From Planctomycetota bacterium (lineage in GTDB: Bacteria; Planctomycetota; MHYJ01; WSZJ01), in assembly GCA_038060895.1 (NCBI GenBank), contig JBBTCT010000014.1, forward strand, positions 92,649-137,621: a stretch of DNA of 44,973 nucleotides. Direction: 5' to 3'. Positions 28,611 through 37,444 of the stretch are shown here, piece after piece. The notes beneath the pieces are model-generated. The model was given only the letters and a program-made list of their open reading frames with translations, was not told the origin of the DNA and did no database searches. A program made the position numbers and the translations under genes. The first letter of the stretch is position 1. Each line of letters begins with the position of its first letter.

Positions 28611-29183
28611 TTAACCGTTTCCCTGGGGAGTCTTGGTTGCCGGGCCGGCGGGGGATTGCGTCGGGGCCGCCGCGGGAGGGACCGGCGCGACGCGGGCACG
28701 CCGCGATTCTTCGTCCCGAAGGCGCGCCAGCTCCTTCAGCGCCGCGGGGTAATTCGGGCAGAGGCGGACCGCTTCCTCGAGCTCGTGAATCGCCTCGGCG
28801 AGCTGGTTCTTCTGGAGCCAGACGCGGCTCAGGTTGAAGTGAGGGTAGTGACGCGCTTCGTAGCGCGTGGCCCGCACGGCCCGCTGCAGGTAGGGAATCG
28901 CTTCGTCGAGCTTCCCCTGCTCGATCAGGTAAGCGCCGATGTCGTTGTACGGGTTTCCATATTCGGGGTCGATCGCGATCGCCTTGTGGCACTCGTCGAT
29001 CGCGTCCTGCATCCGCCGCATGAACGAGTAGGTCCAGCCGAGGAAGGTGTGGGCCTCCGGCAGGGGGTGCGCCGCAATCGACTTGCGGTATGCGTCGGCG
29101 GCCTTGTCGAGGTCGCCCTGCATCTGCAGCCGGTACCCCTGGTCGAGATAGAACTCGGCGTGCTCAAACCGAATGGCGCCCAC
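28611..29183 (-). CDS. tetratricopeptide-repeat protein
   Basis: AHTFLGWTYS, AIAIDPEYGNPYNDIGAYL, PHFNL..V. Confidence 0.85.
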   Translation of the reverse strand: MGAIRFEHAEFYLDQGYRLQMQGDLDKAADAYRKSIAAHPLPEAHTFLGWTYSFMRRMQDAIDECHKAIAIDPEYGNPYNDIGAYLIEQGKLDEAIPYLQRAVRATRYEARHYPHFNLSRVWLQKNQLAEAIHELEEAVRLCPNYPAALKELARLRDEESRRARVAPVPPAAAPTQSPAGPATKTPQGNG

Positions 29184-30307
29184 TAGGGTATCTCCAGCGT
29201 TTTGTGGTAGGTGCAGAGGTTGATGCAGCCGTCCTTCGTCACGAGCACGTCGTCCTCGATGCGCACGCCGCCGTGGCCGGGGTAGTACAGCCCAGGCTCG
29301 ACGGTCACGACCATTCCTTCCTTGAGCGGTGCGCCGCGCTTTCCCATCCCCGGCGACTCGTGCACGTCCAGCCCGATCCCGTGCCCCGTGCCGTGGAAGA
29401 ACCCCCGGGGCTTGCCGTCAATCGTCTCTGTCTTGAAACCGAGATCTTCAATCGTCTTCTGCACCGCCTTGTGCACGTCCGTGGATTCCACTCCCGCCCT
29501 GATCGTCCGGAACGCGGTCTCGCACCCCGCCTTCACGGCCGTGTCCATCCGCTTCACCTCCGCCGACGCCTGTCCTTTCACCCACGTCCGCGTCATGTCC
29601 GCGACATATCCCGACTTCAGGTTCTTCGGGAATACGTCGAGGATCACGGGCTCGTGCGGCCGGAGAGGCCCGAAGCCGCGGCAATGAGGGTCAACCCCCT
29701 GCTCCCCTCCCGCGACGATCGTGTGGTCCGCAAGAAGGCCGTTCTCGTAGAGATACAGGTCGATGACCTTCCGCAGCCGCTCCGACGTCAGCGGCGCGCC
29801 CTGCCACCACAGCTCGTTCCCGCGGATCTCCGTCTCCCTCAGCGTCTTCTCCGCCCGCGCGTACGCCTCTTCCGTGAAGCGGATCGACTCCTTGATGTGG
29901 GCGAGTTCTTCGGCCGTCTTCACCGTGCGCTCGGGATAGAAAGGGTCTTTCCTGCACGTCAGCGTCAGGCCCCTTCCGCGCAACTGGTCCACCAGCTCGA
30001 ACGGAAACGTCGCCGGCACGAACACCCGGTCCTCGCCGCGCTTCTTGAACACGCTCACGATCACGTCGGCAATCGTCGGCGAAGCATTCCCCGCGTCCTT
30101 CAGTTCCTTCTCGATCGCCGAGAGCGACAGGACCGCGTCGACCCTCGCCTCGGCCTTGCCTCTTCCCAGCTCGAGATCGTTCAGCACGAGCATGCTTTTC
30201 CCGCCGGCCTCGATGTAGACGATCGGGTCGCCGGCCTGGAAACGCGTCTTGTAGAGGAGGTTCGAATCGTGGGACGAAGCGGCATAAATGAGGACAGCTT
30301 CGGGCAT
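29183..30307 (-). CDS. M24 family Xaa-Pro peptidase
   Basis: ILDVFP, GYVADMTRT, FFHGTGHGIGLDVHE, VTVEPGLY, GVRIEDD. Confidence 0.93.
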   Translation of the reverse strand: MPEAVLIYAASSHDSNLLYKTRFQAGDPIVYIEAGGKSMLVLNDLELGRGKAEARVDAVLSLSAIEKELKDAGNASPTIADVIVSVFKKRGEDRVFVPATFPFELVDQLRGRGLTLTCRKDPFYPERTVKTAEELAHIKESIRFTEEAYARAEKTLRETEIRGNELWWQGAPLTSERLRKVIDLYLYENGLLADHTIVAGGEQGVDPHCRGFGPLRPHEPVILDVFPKNLKSGYVADMTRTWVKGQASAEVKRMDTAVKAGCETAFRTIRAGVESTDVHKAVQKTIEDLGFKTETIDGKPRGFFHGTGHGIGLDVHESPGMGKRGAPLKEGMVVTVEPGLYYPGHGGVRIEDDVLVTKDGCINLCTYHKTLEIP

Positions 30308-30440
30308 CGAGGGGTCTCCGGCGCGCGGGTGAGGGCTTTGACGATAGCAACAGGGGGGCCACGCATCAACGGCAGATGGAATTCCGAGCGGTCCCGTTGC
30401 GTTGCAGGGAGTGGCGCGCGTCCCTTACGATGCGCCGACC

Positions 30441-32348
30441 ATGCGCCTCCTTCCCCTGGCCGTCGTGCTGCTCGCCGCTTCCCGTGCCTTCGCGCAGGAG
30501 GGGGACGAGGTGCCTCCTGAACTGGCGGCGCTGGAAGGGCGGATCGTGTCGATCACGCCCGCCGAGGCGAAGATGGGGGATACGGTCGTCGCGAAGGTCG
30601 AGCTTGTGTCGCCGAAGGGGTGGCACATTTACGGGCTGGCGAAGGGGACGAGCGGCGCGCCGACGGAATTCAAGGTGACGGAGGGGCCGTTCCGGGTCGG
30701 TGCAGGAGTCAAGGAGCCGGCGCCCAAGGTCCATGACCACACGTTTGAGAACGGGTACCGGGAAAACTACTCGTACCACGAGGGCACTGTCGTCTTCGAA
30801 GTTCCGCTGGAAGTGACCGGGGACGCGAAGCCGGGCAACACGAAGGTGACAATCTCGGTGCACACGATGTTGTGCACGATGGCCGTCTGCCTGGACGAGG
30901 CGGATACGACGTATTCGGCGACGATGAAGATTGTCGAGGGCGGCGTCGCGAAGCCGCCGACGGTGACCGATGGCGCGGCGCAGGGCGGGGGAGGATCTCC
31001 GCCGAAGGCGGCCCACGATCCCAAGAAGGGCGGATTCTGGGCGTTCATCGGGCTCTCCATCCTGACCGGGCTGGCCACTCTCGTCACTCCGTGCGTCTTT
31101 CCCATGATCCCCGTGACGATCTCCTTCTTCACCAAGCAGGCCAGCGGCGCGCGAAGCGGCACCTTCGCGCTGGCTGCGGCCTATGGGATCGGCATCGTCG
31201 TGAGCTACACGGCGATCGGCCTCATCGTCAGCGCGGCGCTTGGCGTTGAAGGCGCGAATGATTTCGCCAAGAACGCCTGGGTCAATATCACGATCTGCAT
31301 CATCTTCGTCATCTTCGCGTTCTCGCTTTTCGGGTGGTTTGAGCTCGCATTGCCCGGCTTCATCACCGACAAACTCTCCGCGCAGGGGAAAAGCGGTTAC
31401 ATCGGCGCCCTGCTCCTGGGACTCACGTTCTCGATCACGGCCTTCACCTGCGCGGCGCCCTTCCTCGGGTCGCTCCTGCTCCTCTCGGTCAATGGCGACT
31501 GGACGTGGTCGCTCTTTGGGTTCCTCACCTACTCGGGCACTATGGCCGTGCCTTTCATCGCTCTAGGCCTCTTCCCCAGCCTTCTCAAGGCGCTTCCGCG
31601 GTCCGGGGGCTGGCTGAATTCGGTCAAGGTCGTTCTGGGATTCGTCGAGCTCGCCGCGGCCTGCAAGTTCCTCGCGAACGCCGACGACCAGTGGAACTGG
31701 CACTTCGTATCGCGCTCCTACGTCCTGGCTTTCTGGACTGCCTGCTCCGTCGCAGCCGCGCTCTACCTGTTCCGCGTCTTCCGGCTCAAGGACGAAGAGC
31801 CGATACCCGAGATCGGGGTCCCGCGCATGCTCTGGGGAATCGTCTTTGCAGGATTCGCCCTCTTTTGCGCCAGCGGACTTTTCGGACGCCATCTCGGGAT
31901 CGTCGAAGCGCTCCTGCCGCTTCCTGAGCAGAAGATGTGGCTCGGCGAGGGTCCGTCGGGGGGAAGTGAAACCGGCGGCGGGCACGTGGAGTACGGCTCG
32001 TACTCGCAGGCGCTAGCGGCGGGAAAAGAGCAGAAGAAACCGGTCTTTCTCGAATTCACGGCGTTCAGCTGAACGAATTGCCGCGCGCTGGAGAACACGG
32101 TGCTGGTCAGCCCGGTGATTCTCAAGGAGCTGGAGCGGTTCGTCTGGCACAAGCTGTGGACGGATTCCAACAAGCCCCACGGGGACGAGAACAGGGCGGC
32201 AAAGGAGTCACTGGGAGGCGGAGCGCTGCCACTGCTCGTTCTTTTCGACGGCGCAGGCCGCGAAATTTCGCGGCTGCCCGATGCTGACAAGGCAGACGTC
32301 CTGATCACCGAATCACAATTGCTCGAAGCGCTTCGCAAAATCCGTTAA
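30441..32348 (+). CDS. dsbD: DsbD-like thiol:disulfide interchange protein, predicted selenoprotein (UGA 32070-32072 = Sec, UxxC in the C-terminal thioredoxin-like domain)
   Basis: Signal peptide, N-terminal domain (GWHIY, C-x4-C), TM domain TPCVFPMIP and FTCAAP, LPRSGGWLN.VK.VLGF. ORF 30402..32072 and ORF 32100..32348 are in the same frame, joined by FLEFTAFS-TGA-TNCRALE. Confidence 0.88.
32085..32103 (+). promoter_or_regulatory. putative bacterial SECIS hairpin for dsbD UGA
   Basis: GCGCUG-[GAGAACA]-CGGUGC stem-loop (two G-U pairs); the G-initiated loop begins 18 nt after the UGA; folded by eye. Confidence 0.45.
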
Positions 32349-32380
32349 AAGTCCGCGAGCGCAAACCAGGAGGAACGACG

Positions 32381-32704
32381 ATGGGCAACGCAAAGGAACT
32401 GTCGGACGACGGATTTGAAGCGGAAGTAGGCGCCAAGGGCGTCGCGCTGGTGGACTTCTGGGCGACGTGGTGCGGCCCGTGCAAGAAGGTCGCACCGATC
32501 GTGGAGGAGCTGGCCGGCCAATTCACCGGCAAAGCCCGCATTTACAAGATGGACGTCGACCAGAACCAGGGAACGCCCGCGCGGTTCGGGGTGATGTCGA
32601 TCCCGACGGTCGTGCTCTTCAAGGACGGCAAGGAAGTCGATCGAGTGGTGGGCGCGCAGTCGAAGGCGTTCTTTGAAGACAAACTCAAAAAGCTGATCGG
32701 ATAA
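32381..32704 (+). CDS. trxA: thioredoxin
   Basis: LVDFWATWCGPCK, VMSIPT..LFKDG; AGGAGG at 32368-32373. Confidence 0.97.
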   Translation: MGNAKELSDDGFEAEVGAKGVALVDFWATWCGPCKKVAPIVEELAGQFTGKARIYKMDVDQNQGTPARFGVMSIPTVVLFKDGKEVDRVVGAQSKAFFEDKLKKLIG

Positions 32705-32706
32705 AA

Positions 32707-33024
32707 ATGGCGCTGACGACGATCTCGGATGCCGACTTTCAGCAGGCGGTCGCCACGGGCGTGACGGTCGTGGACTTCTGGGGAGACGGCTGACATGCCT
32801 GCACGAAAATGGCTCCCGTGCTGGAGCAGCTGGCGGCGCAGGTGGCGGGGAAAGCGAAGATCGTGAAGGCGAAAATCGACGACGCGACGGACTCCGCGTC
32901 GGGCCTCGGGGTCATGGCCCTGCCCACGTTCGTGTTCTTCAAGGACGGGAAGGAAATGGACCGGCAGATCGGGACGGCGTCGCTCGACGCGATGAAGAAG
33001 AAGGTCGACAAGATCACCGGGTAG
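32707..33024 (+). CDS. thioredoxin-fold selenoprotein (UGA 32791-32793 = Sec; U-H-A-C motif), 105 aa
   Basis: ATG 32707, 2 nt after the trxA stop, reads MALTTISDADFQQAVATGVTVVDFWGDG-TGA-HACTKMAPVLEQLA...VMALPTFVFFKDG in one frame and aligns end-to-end with the adjacent TrxA. Confidence 0.88.
32797..32843 (+). promoter_or_regulatory. putative bacterial SECIS hairpin for the Sec-thioredoxin UGA
   Basis: Upper stem GCUCC-[CGUGCU]-GGAGC (32812-32827), loop starting 23 nt after the UGA with G at loop position 2; possible lower stem GCCUGC/GCAGGU; folded by eye. Confidence 0.55.
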
Positions 33025-33025
33025 A

Positions 33026-33604
33026 CTACTTCCAGTCCACCGGCACCTTCTTCGGTTCCTTCCACGTCTCGATCATCACGAACTTCTTCTCGACGCCGTG
33101 AAGCCACACGTCGGAGGTGATTTTCACGTCGTCCTTGCAGTACTTGATCAGTGTGTCCCAGTCGCCTTTCCGGAACCACTCGATCGCCTGCAGCCCGTGG
33201 CCGCTCTTCTTCGTGCCAAGCGTCGCGCTGGCGACCGAGTCGAGCTTCACGCGGTGCCCGAGGATGCGCGTCAGGTCCTCCAGGATGTCGAACGACTTCA
33301 CCGTTGACCAGTCGAGCTTCGTGTAGCGCCCCAGCACTGCGTAGTCGAAATGCTTCTGGTTGAAGCCGATCACCCGGTCGGCGGCCCGCAGGTCCTCGAC
33401 CAGCGCGTTGACTTCCTCTTCGCGGTACACCGCGAACTCCTTCGTCTCCAGCGCGTATGTCACGCCGACCGACATCTTCAGCTCCGCCATCTTGTTGCGG
33501 CCGCCGACGTCGTCGAACGAGTTCTGCGTCTCCAGGTCGAAGACGAGCGTGCGCGCTTTCGATCTCGGCGCGCCGAAAAGCAGTCCCTGGGCGTTGTCGG
33601 GCAT
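33026..33604 (-). CDS. RNase H-like (DEDD/RNase_H_2, YprB/MrfB-like) exonuclease domain protein
   Basis: LVFDLETQ, VIGFNQKHFDY, KLDSVA..TLG..K, YCKDDV..T; start re-called at ATG 33604. Confidence 0.85.
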   Translation of the reverse strand: MPDNAQGLLFGAPRSKARTLVFDLETQNSFDDVGGRNKMAELKMSVGVTYALETKEFAVYREEEVNALVEDLRAADRVIGFNQKHFDYAVLGRYTKLDWSTVKSFDILEDLTRILGHRVKLDSVASATLGTKKSGHGLQAIEWFRKGDWDTLIKYCKDDVKITSDVWLHGVEKKFVMIETWKEPKKVPVDWK

Positions 33605-33674
33605 GAGGAGAAATCCGGAACGGGGATGCGCCGATATAACCCGTGCCGCGATTGAAGGCACGCAAAAGCCTCCT

Positions 33675-36515
33675 CTACTTCTTCACGATGATCGTCTTGG
33701 GCCCTTCGACGTGCCGGCCCTGCTTCTCCCCGAACCACACGGCGAAGGCGCGGATGTCCGCCTCCCGCGTCGCCCTCGCGCAAAGCGCGTCGGCCGCGGC
33801 GCCGTCTCTCCGGGCCGCGAAGGCCAGGGAGCCCGCGAGAAGGAGACTGCCGCGGGATTCGCGCGGCTGTTCCTCGCACCACGCCTCGTAAGTCGACGCC
33901 AGCGCGCGGCCCGTGAGCGCGGCGACCGGCGTTTTCCACTCGGCGGCGTCTTTCGCGCGCTGGCTGATCGAGGACTCCATCGCCGACTTCTCGTGCCCTC
34001 CGGCAAGTGAGACGGATTCGAGGAGGATGCCGAGGAAGTGCTGCGGCGTGCGACCGTCGGCGTAGAGCGCCGACTGCGCCTGGAGGAATTGCGCCGCCTC
34101 AGGCCACTTGCCCTGCGCGCACGACGCCAGCGCGCGCCAGTTTCGCGCCCAGAGCCCCGCGGAGGACGGGTGCGTGACGGAGGCGTGCGTGGAGGAGAGG
34201 CGCTTCTCCGCTTCGCCGATCTGCCCTTCGGAGAGGAATGACTCGATCGTCCAGAGAAGGAGCCGCGCGCGGTCCCGGCGCGTGATCTGGTCCTTCAGGT
34301 CGAGCGATTTCTGCAGTTCCGTGCGGGAGAATTTCTGCTGCGCGGGATCCAGCCCGAGGTGGGCCAGGTAGGAGTGCAGCTCCATCCGCGCTCCCAGCTG
34401 CGTCGGGTGCGACTGCAGGAGCGCGAGCGCTTCAGCCCGGGCCTGCGCAGGCCCCCCTTTCGCCGCCGCGATCCGCATCAGGCGCCCGCAGATTTCCGAG
34501 GTCTCGTGCGGCTCGAGGCGCGCGCCGCGCAGGAGCTGGACGGCGATGGAGGAAGCGAGCGCGTGTGCGTCCTTCTCGGCGACGGCGAGGACCTCATGAA
34601 GCGTCGTCCAGACCGGGACGCGCAGGGGGTCGCCACGGCGGCGGTCGAGTTCCTGCGTCAACACGGCCCAGGCGTCCTGGATCTTGTGCGTGGCGAGGGC
34701 GATCTTCGCGCGACCCACCGCTTCCAGCGCCTGGTGGCTGGTGTCCTTGAGCGCAGCGAAATCGGCGGCGGCCTTGCCGGTCTGGCCGAGGAGAAGCGCG
34801 CAGAGGGCGGCCTTGAAGCGCGCGAGATAGCCTTCCGAGCGGTCGGCGTGCGAGGTCGCGAGCTCGAGGTAAAGGACCCTGGCTTCTTCGAGGCGTTCGA
34901 GGGCCATGAGCTGGTCGGGGACTTCCGAGAAATCGACGCGCAGGGGGACTCCCTTGTTTTCGACCCGGAGTCCCGACAGGCGCAGGCCCAGGCTCTGCGA
35001 TTCGAAGCCGACGTGCGGGCCGCGCGGCGGGAAGACGTCGCGGAAGTCGAGGACGCGGCGGCCGTCGATCTCCAGGGACAGCGCGTCGGCCTCACGGGTG
35101 ACCAGGATTTCGTGAGGCTGGCGTGACGCGATCTCGAGGTCGGAGGCGCGGGAGACGAGGACGTTTTCGCGGAGGAGCTCGGCGCGCGCGTCTTCGCCGC
35201 CGAAGAGCCGGAGGAGGTAGCCGTCGGGGCCGAACTCGTCGCGGGGGCCGATCGAGATGTCGAGGCGCCACGAGGGCTTTCCCGCAGGCCCGACGACCTT
35301 TGCGTGCAGGCGCAGGTCGCCCGGCAGGCGCGCCTTGGAGAGAAGCCGCGCACGGGGTCCTTCCGCGCAAACCAGGCTCCCCGCGTCCATGGCCCAGCGC
35401 CCGAGGGATGTCTGCCATCCTTCCTGGCGCGCCGACCACGGCACGTCGCCGTTCAGGTACGCGCGGATTTCTTCGGCCAGCTCCCCGGCGTGCGCGTGGC
35501 GCTTGTCGGGCTGAAGCGCCAGCGCTCGCGTGGCGATCTGGCAGAGCACGCGCGGAGCGTCCTGCCCGAGCGGCCGTTTTTCGGGAGGGATGATCGGCCC
35601 CTTGATCGTGCGGGCCATGAGTTCGTCGGGGCGGCCGTCGACCGGGAGGCGCATCGTGAGGATCTGGTAGAGGATCGCTCCCAGCGCGTAGACATCCGAG
35701 GGCGGCCGCGCCTGCGCCGCGTGCCCGCCCGCCTGCTCCGGGGACATGTACCCCGGCGTTCCCAGCACCGCGCCGTCGCGCGACAGTCCCGGGTCGTCGG
35801 CAAGCTGAAGCCCGAGTTCCGACGCGACGGGCTCCGCAACTTCAAGCCGCTCCCCGCCTTCGTCCGCGATCCGCGACAGCCCCCAGTCCATCACCAGCAC
35901 TTCGCCGAATTCCCCCAGCATCACGTTCGCGGGCTTGAGGTCGCGGTGGACGATCCTCAAGTGGTGCGCGAACGACATCGCTTCGCAGATCCGCAGGAAA
36001 ATCTCCAGAAGCGCCGGCCTCGAGTAGCGCTTCACGTCCGCGGCCACGCCGTCGCGCACGCCGGTCAGCACGTCCGCCAGTGACCGTCCCGTGACGTACT
36101 TCATCGTGTAATACAACCCCATCCCCTGGTCGTTCCCGACGCGGTAAATCGGCACGATCCCCGGGTGCGTCAGCTTCGCCGAGACCGCCGCTTCCTCGAG
36201 GATTTTGCGGGCGACGCCGGAGGCGCGGAGCTCGGGGCGCAGGAGTTTCAACGCGACCTGGCGGCCGAGCACGGGTTCGCGCACGAGGTAAACGTCGCCC
36301 ATGCCCCCGGTGCCGAGGAGTTTTTCAACCGTGTGGTCGCCGATGGAGGCGGGAAGGAGGCGCTCGGCGGGTTTGGAGGCGGGACGGCCGCCGTCGGACT
36401 GGGGCACGGGGGAGACGACCGGAATGGCAGGCGCGCAGGCGGGGCAGAACCGGGAGTTGCTCCCGATGGGAACGAACTGGCCGCAGTTGGTGCATTTCCG
36501 GATGAGACCCGCCAT
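33675..36515 (-). CDS. Ser/Thr protein kinase with N-terminal zinc ribbon, central beta-rich domain and TPR-like C-terminus (chlamydial PknD-like)
   Basis: CTNC...CPAC; GTGGMGDVY, VALK, YYTMKYV, HRDLKPAN, DWG, GTPGYMSPEQ; start re-called at ATG 36515. Confidence 0.9.
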   Translation of the reverse strand: MAGLIRKCTNCGQFVPIGSNSRFCPACAPAIPVVSPVPQSDGGRPASKPAERLLPASIGDHTVEKLLGTGGMGDVYLVREPVLGRQVALKLLRPELRASGVARKILEEAAVSAKLTHPGIVPIYRVGNDQGMGLYYTMKYVTGRSLADVLTGVRDGVAADVKRYSRPALLEIFLRICEAMSFAHHLRIVHRDLKPANVMLGEFGEVLVMDWGLSRIADEGGERLEVAEPVASELGLQLADDPGLSRDGAVLGTPGYMSPEQAGGHAAQARPPSDVYALGAILYQILTMRLPVDGRPDELMARTIKGPIIPPEKRPLGQDAPRVLCQIATRALALQPDKRHAHAGELAEEIRAYLNGDVPWSARQEGWQTSLGRWAMDAGSLVCAEGPRARLLSKARLPGDLRLHAKVVGPAGKPSWRLDISIGPRDEFGPDGYLLRLFGGEDARAELLRENVLVSRASDLEIASRQPHEILVTREADALSLEIDGRRVLDFRDVFPPRGPHVGFESQSLGLRLSGLRVENKGVPLRVDFSEVPDQLMALERLEEARVLYLELATSHADRSEGYLARFKAALCALLLGQTGKAAADFAALKDTSHQALEAVGRAKIALATHKIQDAWAVLTQELDRRRGDPLRVPVWTTLHEVLAVAEKDAHALASSIAVQLLRGARLEPHETSEICGRLMRIAAAKGGPAQARAEALALLQSHPTQLGARMELHSYLAHLGLDPAQQKFSRTELQKSLDLKDQITRRDRARLLLWTIESFLSEGQIGEAEKRLSSTHASVTHPSSAGLWARNWRALASCAQGKWPEAAQFLQAQSALYADGRTPQHFLGILLESVSLAGGHEKSAMESSISQRAKDAAEWKTPVAALTGRALASTYEAWCEEQPRESRGSLLLAGSLAFAARRDGAAADALCARATREADIRAFAVWFGEKQGRHVEGPKTIIVKK

Positions 36516-36559
36516 GCGCGGAAGTGTAGCGGGAGGCTGCCGGGAGCGAGAGAGCGTTG

Positions 36560-37444
36560 TTAGACGGAGATATCCAATCTCTCTCTCACGACATGCTTCC
36601 CCTTTTCGTCCAGCGCGATCCTCGCGGCGGCGGTGCGGGGGTCGTGCTCCGAGAAGAGGATCCAGTTCTCCTTCACGGCGCGATCGAGGATGTCCTTCTT
36701 TTCCTTCATGGAGAGCAGGGCGTTCAGGTCGTAGCCCATCACCCATGGAACCGGGAGGTGGTTCAGGGTGGGGACCAGGTCGGCGCAGTAGAAGAGCTTT
36801 CCTTCGGGGCCCTCGATGAGAGGGAGTTGCTGCCCGAAGGTGTGTCCGTCGCAGCAGACGAGTTTCAGCCCCGGCAGGATTTCGGCCGGGCCGTCGACAA
36901 GCTCGAGCCCCGGCGCGTCCGCAACGGGGTTGACGTGCTCGGGAAGGTAGCTCGCGCGTTCGCGCTCGTGCGGGCTGCGCGCCCAGGCGAGATTGGATTT
37001 CTGCAGCCAGTGCTTCGCCTTCGGGAAAACTAGCGACAGACCGCCCGCCGGGTCGGCTTTCGAGAGGCCGCCGGCATGGTCGAAGTGCAGGTGAGTGAGG
37101 AGGAGGTCGGTGACGCCGGCCGGGGTCAGTCCGTGCGCCGCGAGACCGCGCTCAAGAGACGCCGTGGCGTAGTCGATCCCGTAGATGTCGAGCATCTTCG
37201 GCGACCACTTCCCGCCCGCACCGCAATCCACGAGCACCGTCCGGCCGTGCCCGCGCAGGAGCATCGCGCGCATCCCGAGCTCGATCCGGTTTTTCGCGTC
37301 CGGGGCCGTCAGCTTCGACCACATGGTCCAGGGCACGACGCCGAACATCGCCCCGCCGTCGAGCCAGAAGCGCCCCGTCTCGACGGAGTCGATCCGCCAG
37401 CCGCCGATCGAGAGGCCCTTCGGCTCGCTCAGGGCTGGGCTCAT
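36560..37444 (-). CDS. metallo-beta-lactamase-fold hydrolase (YtnP-like)
   Basis: FWLDGGAMFGVVP, THLHFDHAGG, GHTFGQQ, ADLVPT, MGYD, EHDP; ATG 37444 overlaps the queD stop. Confidence 0.92.
   Translation of the reverse strand: MSPALSEPKGLSIGGWRIDSVETGRFWLDGGAMFGVVPWTMWSKLTAPDAKNRIELGMRAMLLRGHGRTVLVDCGAGGKWSPKMLDIYGIDYATASLERGLAAHGLTPAGVTDLLLTHLHFDHAGGLSKADPAGGLSLVFPKAKHWLQKSNLAWARSPHERERASYLPEHVNPVADAPGLELVDGPAEILPGLKLVCCDGHTFGQQLPLIEGPEGKLFYCADLVPTLNHLPVPWVMGYDLNALLSMKEKKDILDRAVKENWILFSEHDPRTAAARIALDEKGKHVVRERLDISV

Follow-up and report, generated by a model that had tools for sequence, protein, structure and literature searches.

The question raised by this locus is whether two TGA codons, each standing at the first Cys position of a thioredoxin-type CxxC motif, end their genes or are read as selenocysteine (Sec, U). 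The DNA analysed here is a stretch of 44,973 nucleotides (nt) from a Planctomycetota bacterium (assembly GCA_038060895.1, contig JBBTCT010000014.1), which we refer to as the window. Between positions 30,441 and 33,024 it carries three genes in a row, for a DsbD-family reductase, a canonical thioredoxin and a second thioredoxin, and the TGAs lie in the first and third of them. A preliminary description of this DNA had proposed three adjacent same-strand genes, a TGA in two of them and a WCGPC motif in the middle one; all of these features were found where it had put them, correct to the base:

30441-32348, plus strand: gene 1, DsbD family, with ATG at 30441 and TAA at 32346-32348; 635 codons, one in-frame TGA at codon 544
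32070-32072, plus strand: TGA read as Sec (U544) in gene 1, context FLEFTAFS-U-TNC-RALE
32369-32374, plus strand: AGGAGG ahead of gene 2
32381-32704, plus strand: gene 2, canonical thioredoxin of 107 residues, motif FWATWCGPC
32707-33024, plus strand: gene 3, predicted Sec-thioredoxin, with ATG at 32707 and TAG at 33022-33024; 105 codons, one TGA at codon 29
32791-32793, plus strand: TGA read as Sec (U29) in gene 3, context DFWGDG-U-HAC-TKMAP

Both TGAs are very probably Sec codons, because the genome holds the Sec machinery, Sec and Cys alternate among relatives, the thioredoxin gene carries a conserved Sec insertion sequence (SECIS), the codons downstream are under purifying selection, and identical letters are found elsewhere. 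There is strong support for the proposal that DsbD and a thioredoxin each have a true Sec codon where the UxxC motif has its attacking residue. We are fairly confident that the operon encodes a DsbD reductase with Sec in its gamma domain, a canonical TrxA and a second, cytoplasmic Sec-thioredoxin.

Sec and Cys at the catalytic column of DsbD homologues

DsbD loci were collected in two samples. The first comprised 61 genomes, namely that of the window and 60 relatives; 42 of these gave a DsbD match at E <= 1e-20, and 30 loci were fetched. The second comprised 401 genomes of the phylum, from which 24 further loci were fetched, giving 54 related loci in all. The gamma-domain column holds TGA in 28 of the 30 first-sample loci, within the motif F(V/I/L)(E/D)FT(G/A)xx-U-xxC, and the two exceptions have Cys (CTNC in L026, CLNC in L031). 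The second sample has U in 13 loci and Cys in 11. Over both samples the column is thus TGA in 41 loci and Cys in 13, counts that come from related genomes and are not independent observations.

All 22 full-length database homologues have Cys at the position of U544. We also examined 80 loci obtained with an alignment query, mostly from Acidobacteriota, Bacteroidota, Kapaibacteria, Gemmatimonadota and other phyla, two of them labelled Planctomycetia or Kuenenia. The column is Cys in all 79 that could be scored, and the absence of Sec holds for those 80 loci only, the set being tblastn-ranked, which may slightly disfavour TGA-interrupted genes. The alternation of Cys and TGA for which the preliminary description had called is therefore present: TGA and Cys share the column in related loci, and Cys occupies it elsewhere. 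The Sec form of DsbD seems characteristic of the phylum to which the window belongs; in the NCBI records, near-identical fragments carry Planctomycetota or Planctomycetes labels.

Across the phylum sample, a DsbD match at E <= 1e-40 was obtained in 204 of the 401 genomes. Among the 150 matches listed, a hand count gave 103 with one TGA, 45 with none and 2 of another kind, the position of the TGA being confirmed for the 54 fetched loci alone and some of the matches counted as lacking a TGA ending short of the motif. The TGA form occurs in several genomes that are close to complete, such as G117, G216, G181, G246 and G430. Two chance nonsense mutations at the same catalytic position had been considered implausible, and they are: the same TGA column recurs in the 41 DsbD loci and in 14 neighbouring thioredoxin genes.

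Selection was estimated by comparing the window with its closest orthologues. In DsbD, the ratio of nonsynonymous to synonymous substitution rates (dN/dS) is 0.35-0.39 after the TGA (90-91 codons, three pairs), against 0.18-0.38 before it. After the TGA of the Sec-thioredoxin, dN/dS is 0.05-0.22 (74-76 codons, five pairs). Relaxed selection past the TGAs, which had been named as a sign against Sec, is not what these values indicate: from 0.05 to 0.39, they denote purifying selection downstream of both codons.

Two loci, L028 (genome G053) and L033 (G012), have an additional UxxC thioredoxin-like stretch upstream of DsbD in the same read-through frame, with the motifs FLEFTGES-U-MAC and FLEFTGAG-U-LVC, respectively. 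Each of these has its own hairpin, and the DsbD proteins there give no alpha-domain match.

Sec machinery and genetic code

The genome is a binned assembly of 5.4 Mb in 47 contigs, 86.5% complete with 1.5% contamination, in which the window lies on the contig labelled C14. We found in it all the Sec machinery for which the preliminary description had proposed to search. The gene for tRNA-Sec (selC) scores 71.7 bits (Rfam gathering score 47) and is called SeC with anticodon tca by ARAGORN, and selA (541 bits), selB (310.7 bits) and selD (364 bits) are all above their curated cut-offs. The selD gene is itself a Sec gene, with one TGA in the context SCAG-U-ASKLGP (C2:48628-49548, minus strand). 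In the first sample, selA is above cut-off in 50 of the 61 genomes, including 27 of the 28 with a verified Sec-DsbD; the remaining one, G044, is 87% complete.

A reassigned genetic code was considered and rejected: TGA is an ordinary stop genome-wide, being the closing codon of 2158 of the 3892 open frames with 400 or more codons. ARAGORN reports a second tRNA-SeC(tca) on C1, and the only tRNAs with anticodon tca are those called SeC. It also lists five long tRNAs (92-97 nt), whose anticodons belong to Gln (ctg), Trp (cca), Pro (tgg, agg) and Arg (tcg). A tandem pair among them reaches 39.7-45.6 bits with the tRNA-Sec model of Rfam, short of the cut-off. The long tRNAs may be tRNA-Sec-like 'allo-tRNAs'. 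The ARAGORN coordinates are as follows:

C1:472898-472990: second tRNA-SeC
C5:72286-72377, minus strand: long tRNA
C22:273515-273608 and C22:273625-273721: long tRNAs
C33:67179-67272: long tRNA
C46:6600-6696, minus strand: long tRNA

Support for the TGA letters and public gene calls

The window stretch is present in groundwater and aquifer metagenome runs. Contigs of another sample (X2) cover 30441-32477 and 32715-33024, spanning both TGAs with no difference, and a contig of a different study (X3) covers 32454-32832, spanning the thioredoxin TGA, again with no difference. A contig from an RNA library (X8) runs over 31949-32269, across the DsbD TGA, with no differing letters listed; contigs of an RNA library are no proof of transcription. 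Contig gaps over the DsbD TGA in X3 and X6 and over the thioredoxin TGA in X8 are coverage holes only. Since the same letters stand in contigs of other samples, an assembly error at the TGAs, another possibility raised at the outset, is excluded: TGA is seen unchanged, and not the TGC or TGT that would have pointed to such an error.

Public gene calls are cut at or near these codons. The record for the window DsbD (P0004) has 543 residues and stops at FTAFS, truncated at the TGA, and that for the Sec-thioredoxin (P0124) is a 71-residue fragment beginning MAPVLEQ; P0125 likewise has 71 residues. The expectation that standard gene calling would split both Sec genes is thereby confirmed. A further NCBI protein from a metagenome-assembled genome (P0005), 65% identical to the window DsbD, has two tandem alpha (DsbD_N) domains, and its record ends with FLEFTAFS, at the TGA.

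SECIS hairpins

Candidate hairpins were located downstream of both TGAs:

32812-32827, plus strand: Sec-thioredoxin SECIS hairpin, stem GCUCC/GGAGC, loop CGUGCU, 23 nt after the UGA, -12.5 kcal/mol
32080-32107, plus strand: DsbD candidate hairpin H1, loop GAGAACA, 18 nt after the UGA, -12.8 kcal/mol, fitting the bacterial SECIS (bSECIS) constraints
about 32098-32115, plus strand: DsbD alternative hairpin H2, loop GGUC, 32 nt after the UGA, weak in the window

The hairpin of the thioredoxin gene is strongly conserved. The block CTCCCGTGNTGGAG, which starts 22 nt past the T of the TGA, is shared without change by 14 of 14 Sec-thioredoxin genes and absent from 10 of 10 Cys-thioredoxins, and it occurs a single time in the 5.4-Mb genome. 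Across the 14 Sec-thioredoxins the loop reads CGUGNU, and five consecutive third-codon positions (+23 to +35) do not vary; the 10 Cys-thioredoxins have no invariant third position between +17 and +71. Published bSECIS constraints are a loop of 3-9 nt with G in the first two loop positions, a spacing of 16-37 nt and an energy of at most -7.5 kcal/mol (legend to Fig. 2 of PMC13188914). In our own implementation, these constraints are satisfied by all 14 Sec-thioredoxins and by 4 of the 10 Cys-thioredoxins.

For the DsbD UGA, the SECIS assignment is uncertain. The constraints are passed by 22 of 26 Sec sites of the DsbD set, or 24 of 28 if the neighbouring UxxC rows of L028 and L033 are included. 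In two other DsbD clades there are compensatory pairs, GAACCG/CGGTTC versus GAATCG/CGATTC in one case and GGGCAAGG versus GGGAAAGG with a complementary partner in the other.

Domain architecture and topology of DsbD

The read-through translation of gene 1 has the alpha-beta-gamma order of a DsbD protein, with the following parts:

30441-30494, plus strand: predicted signal peptide MRLLPLAVVLLAASRAFA, with A-x-A before Q19, read from the translation, with a putative cleavage site
30534-30932, plus strand: alpha (DsbD_N) beta-sandwich, residues about 32-164, with Cys145 at 30873-30875 and Cys150 at 30888-30890
31035-31883, plus strand: beta (membrane) domain, with Cys218 at 31092-31094 (TPCVFP) and Cys337 at 31449-31451 (FTCAAP)
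31998-32336, plus strand: gamma (thioredoxin-like) domain, residues about 520-632, active site U544-T-N-C547

In the AlphaFold model, which has a mean predicted local distance difference test score of 75.7, residues 4-21 form a helix, after which comes a linker of low confidence. The modelled alpha domain is all-beta and matches those of Neisseria and E. coli DsbD (6dnv, 3pfu, 1jpe, 1l6p) with template modelling (TM) scores of 0.64-0.67 in Foldseek. The corresponding profile, PF11412, gives 21.4 bits (E 2.7e-4), under its cut-off of 25, and 52.1 bits on the 65%-identical relative. The membrane domain is recognized by PF02683 (DsbD_TM, 110.4 bits, residues 200-411) and matches CcdA (5vkv) by phmmer. 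Eight hydropathy segments were delineated at about 202-220, 249-267, 279-297, 321-350, 367-385, 394-412, 426-446 and 458-481. For the gamma domain, PF13899 (Thioredoxin_7) passes with 34.7 bits over residues 520-603, and PF13098 reaches 21.8 bits, under its cut-off of 27. By fold it is closest to gamma structures of E. coli DsbD (2fwe, 2fwh, 1uc7, 1vrs_E; TM score 0.74-0.79), and phmmer matches it to 3f9u, which has the motif FTGYGCVNCRKME.

Six redox positions are invariant among the aligned homologues, namely C145/C150 in alpha (in 23 of 23), C218/C337 in the membrane domain and U544 (Cys in homologues)/C547 in gamma. Given a signal peptide and eight segments between the soluble domains, alpha and gamma should both be on the exported side. 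The extracytoplasmic gamma domain and cytoplasmic Sec-thioredoxin that had been proposed for this locus fit the predicted topology, with a signal peptide and eight transmembrane segments in the former protein and no signal peptide in the latter. The NCBIfam DsbD model PRK00293 is not reached (155.7 bits versus a cut-off of 330); by these scores the window protein is a member of the broader DsbD family, outside the enterobacterial-type subfamily that PRK00293 represents. We also tried TsoB (NF045694) as an identity and rejected it, the score being 162.5 bits against a cut-off of 805, with no rhodanese match.

The two thioredoxins

Gene 2 has the active-site residues Cys31 and Cys34 and scores 116 bits with TIGR01068 (cut-off 96.8) and 101.6 bits with PF00085. 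It is the only TIGR01068 match above cut-off in the genome, the Sec-thioredoxin being second best. As the sole canonical thioredoxin of an 86.5%-complete genome, gene 2 is probably the housekeeping TrxA. The preliminary description was right to call it a normal WCGPC thioredoxin; its suggestion of a paralogue that acts as an alternative or selenium-independent donor is not supported in that simple form.

In gene 3, the active site is U29-H-A-C32, in which U29 corresponds to the leading Cys of WCGPC. The protein passes PF00085 (73 bits, cut-off 23.5) and stays under the TIGR01068 cut-off with 81.8 bits, which by profile scores makes it a thioredoxin fold of a divergent subfamily. It should be cytoplasmic, because no signal peptide was detected in gene 3. 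Full-length Cys forms in the database come no closer than 47-48% identity.

We analysed the genes behind DsbD in the first-sample loci, which are of the window's class. One or two same-strand thioredoxin genes follow DsbD in 15 of the 30, and in 12 of the 30 at least one is a Sec-thioredoxin; together, these loci gave 14 Sec genes, with the motifs UHAC, UPSC, UGGC, UGAC and UPAC, and 10 Cys genes. Two loci hold two Sec-thioredoxins behind DsbD. In two others, L023 and L048, a Sec-DsbD is followed by a Cys-thioredoxin only.

One genus has two DsbD types that are about 35% identical, ULTC (L035, L041, L043) and UTNC (L020-L023), with nearly the same trxA/Sec-trx pair behind them. Across the ULTC and UTNC loci, the Cys-thioredoxins are 73-98% identical and the Sec-thioredoxins 70-90%.

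Genetic surroundings and other redox genes

The three genes are separated by 32 nt (genes 1 and 2) and 2 nt (genes 2 and 3), all on the plus strand. The flanking genes are on the minus strand, coding for an M24 peptidase (29183-30307) on one side and for an RNase H-like exonuclease (33026-33661) and a Ser/Thr kinase of 1023 residues (33675-36746) on the other. With minus-strand neighbours on both sides, the dsbD-trx-trx trio stands as one unit. A promoter and terminator scan was uninformative: it gave one promoter-like site, which is intragenic and on the minus strand, and six terminator-like sites versus 2.7 expected, one of which is the reverse complement of the Sec-thioredoxin SECIS hairpin. 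An Rfam scan of 30200-33300 gave no match.

Contig depth rises to 84 and 169 at 32442-32528, the segment coding for WCGPC, with many loose contig ends; this jump is explained by the recruitment of other organisms' contigs by a conserved thioredoxin segment and does not reflect copy number. At 30952, where a linker of low complexity joins the alpha domain to the membrane domain, one X3 contig is short of two letters (depth 3.4 of 7.8); this could reflect strain variation or a mistake in the contig.

Elsewhere in the genome, a thioredoxin reductase (TrxB) is encoded on C19 (394 bits), and a TGA is present in 7 of the 16 thioredoxin-like matches. The genome has six more UxxC genes:

C1:198984-199916, plus strand: L154
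C39:13101-13538, plus strand: L155
C35:63270-64295, minus strand: L156
C12:199346-200185, minus strand: L157
C35:20480-20827, plus strand: L158
C2:61703-62257, minus strand: L159

Five of them are of the Thioredoxin_7 type (DsbD-gamma-like, two with TPR tails), and L156 is a ResA/TlpA-like Redoxin with the motif WUGPC. Four of the six open with a signal peptide or lipobox, and none is over a curated NCBIfam selenoprotein cut-off. By analogy with known DsbD partners, it is plausible that the exported UxxC proteins are acceptors of DsbD.

Proposed electron path and alternative explanations

In E. coli, electrons pass from cytoplasmic thioredoxin through the membrane domain of DsbD and then via gamma and alpha to periplasmic partners; to our knowledge, DsbD is the only route of reducing power into the bacterial envelope. 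If the window proteins worked in the same manner, NADPH would reduce TrxB, and TrxB would reduce thioredoxin in its Cys form, its Sec form or both. Thioredoxin would then reduce the membrane pair Cys218/Cys337, this pair the U544/C547 selenenylsulfide of gamma, and gamma the Cys145/Cys150 pair of alpha, which would pass the electrons to exported thiol-disulfide proteins. In both the cytoplasmic thioredoxin and gamma, Sec would take the place of the Cys from which the attack on the following disulfide is made. At neutral pH a selenolate is ionised, and as it exceeds a thiolate both as nucleophile and as leaving group, faster exchange is to be expected at these steps. That the Sec-thioredoxin feeds DsbD is suggested by the adjacency of the genes. 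A bolder proposal, which we make tentatively and hold to be rather unlikely, is that Planctomycetota have a selenium-based envelope-reducing pathway with Sec attacking at successive steps, from the Sec-thioredoxin to DsbD gamma and on to exported UxxC acceptors, and that the Sec-thioredoxin has co-evolved as a dedicated donor.

Several results weigh against the main account of the operon, or against parts of it. The Sec assignment at both sites is drawn from sequence, and the electron path from homology and gene order only. The genome is binned, and its Sec-machinery genes are on C4, C1 and C2, away from the window contig. The three closest orthologues do not retain hairpin H1 of DsbD, L021 having none and L022 and L023 a strong H2 instead. 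In the background, 230 of 450 random in-frame positions (51%) pass the bSECIS constraints, so that Sec sites are only mildly enriched and our implementation alone is a weak discriminator. Furthermore, the 66 nt after either UGA fold no better than shuffled sequences (z -0.70 and +0.86), and we have rejected plain folding of the 46-66 nt after the UGA as evidence. Finally, a thioredoxin adjoins DsbD in only 1 of the 24 second-sample loci, and the pairing is thus not obligatory. The trans-membrane relay of the preliminary description consequently stands as regards the Sec sites and the topology, and not as regards the Sec-thioredoxin as donor of DsbD, for which adjacency is the only evidence. 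As to the conserved dsbD-trx-trx order for which it had called, one or two thioredoxin genes follow dsbD in half of the class loci, and a thioredoxin adjoins it in 1 of the 24 further loci of the phylum.

In one alternative explanation, both proteins are selenoproteins and the gene order is nothing but the co-transcription of housekeeping redox genes. The Sec-thioredoxin would then be a general reductant, for instance of peroxiredoxins and methionine sulfoxide reductases, and TrxA would feed DsbD as in E. coli. We regard this as possible, if somewhat doubtful. It agrees with gene 2 being the genome's only canonical thioredoxin found, with the 13 of 24 second-sample loci in which DsbD has Sec at the gamma column and the single one with an adjoining thioredoxin, and with L023 and L048, in which a Sec-DsbD has a Cys-thioredoxin only; moreover, Sec-thioredoxins are tabulated for bacteria with no DsbD link reported there (PMC1794560, table 3). 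It fits less well with the Sec-thioredoxins that directly follow DsbD in 12 of the 30 class loci, the DsbD in front being of either the UTNC or the ULTC type, which share only about 35% identity, with the two loci that have two Sec-thioredoxins each, and with the 2-nt gap, which suggests coupled expression.

The other explanations deny that Sec is inserted. UGA might be read as another amino acid, either because the code is reassigned (Trp or Gly) or by way of a near-cognate tRNA or the insertion of Cys. The genome does have several unusually long tRNAs according to ARAGORN, and under selenium shortage Sec sites in some systems can take other residues. Nevertheless, TGA closes 2158 of the 3892 long frames, all anticodon-tca tRNAs are called SeC, the recoding falls exactly on the Cys columns, and a dedicated hairpin is present in the thioredoxin gene, all of which makes such a reading very improbable. 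Even more improbable is that the TGAs are real stops, which would leave a truncated alpha-beta DsbD resembling CcdA and a thioredoxin pseudogene, or that they are assembly errors. The public gene calls do treat them as stops (P0004, P0005, P0124/P0125), and read-through is deduced from the DNA. Against this, TGA is held at the catalytic column in the 41 DsbD loci and the 14 thioredoxin genes, over independent assemblies, the open frames downstream are under purifying selection, the same letters occur in other samples, and the Sec machinery is present. We thus retain the interpretation of the operon as coding for a Sec-DsbD, a TrxA and a Sec-thioredoxin.

Relationship to known systems

The window DsbD shares with those of E. 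coli and Neisseria the alpha-beta-gamma order, the six redox positions in three pairs and the eight hydrophobic segments between exported domains. It differs from them in having Sec in place of the first gamma Cys and a C-x4-C spacing of the alpha pair. Its gamma domain is also of another type, Thioredoxin_7/DUF255, with the motif FT(G/A)xx(U/C)xNC, like that of Bacteroides 3f9u. CcdA of system II is homologous to the membrane domain and lacks the alpha and gamma domains. The exported ResA/TlpA-like protein L156 of the window genome, a possible acceptor, resembles ResA of that system and differs in having UxxC (WUGPC).

A selenoprotein family called 'thiol:disulfide interchange protein' is said to go back to Kryukov & Gladyshev in 2004. 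The domain model cd02953, one of those under which the family is filed, is presumably the DsbD-gamma model. In the tables available to us, the family is listed with UxxC and PF13098 (PMC13188914, PMC9312934) or with cd02953 (PMC2398784, table 2), and members are reported in Geobacter and Syntrophus (PMC1794560, table 3). As far as table descriptions permit a comparison, the window protein has in common with it a UxxC in a thioredoxin-like domain and differs in that PF13098 remains under cut-off and PF13899 passes, and in its host phylum. Sec-thioredoxins (PF00085, UxxC) are included among characterised, experimentally supported selenoproteins in a table of a 2026 review (PMC13188914), and PMC1794560 tabulates them for Geobacter, Syntrophus, Anaeromyxobacter, Treponema and Carboxydothermus. 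Like a known Sec-thioredoxin such as that of Treponema denticola, gene 3 codes for a PF00085 fold of about 105 residues with Sec at the attacking Cys. It is distinguished by W-G-(D/E)-G-U-H-A-C instead of W-C-G-P-C, by its linkage to dsbD and trxA and by its own invariant SECIS.

Of the operon-encoded selenoproteins described in the accessible part of PMC13188914, TsoB also combines a DsbD membrane domain with a C-terminal thioredoxin-like part, in an operon with other selenoproteins. TsoB has a rhodanese domain and is listed with UxxxxU and two Sec, unlike the window protein, which has no rhodanese domain. The selenoprotein operons given in the same source are grdAB, prdBC, frhA-frhD-hdrA, Prx/SelW-like, Prx-like/AhpD-like, SAO and Tso. 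Selenoproteins in planctomycetes have been described, in a paper whose main text names neither DsbD nor thioredoxin and whose candidates are in its S9 Table (PMC4807772); this table may already name these genes. In the literature text that was readable, our search found no Sec-containing full-length DsbD or CcdA, no account of how widespread such a DsbD is in Planctomycetota and no selenoprotein operon of the dsbD-trx type.

The novelty that the preliminary description attached to the locus is reduced by these sources, tables of which have listed both families as selenoproteins since 2004-2006 (PMC13188914, PMC1794560, PMC2398784). Both proteins are additions to known kinds of selenoprotein, in a known relay and with a known type of substitution. 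The pairing in an operon, the prevalence in Planctomycetota and the misannotation appear to be new.

Implications

With 103 of the 150 listed phylum DsbD matches having one in-frame TGA, the annotation error is systematic, and truncated public records drop the catalytic domain and active site from downstream analyses. The invariant 14-nt hairpin provides a simple marker for locating Sec-thioredoxins. A DsbD with Sec in gamma next to a Sec-thioredoxin represents a natural test of the benefit of selenium in thiol-disulfide relays. Should the selenium-based envelope pathway proposed above exist, the phylum would depend on the supply of selenium for processes such as the maturation of cytochrome c and the repair of periplasmic disulfides. 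The Sec-DsbD also suggests that the redox processes of the envelope could be limited by selenium availability in Planctomycetota of groundwater and in others.

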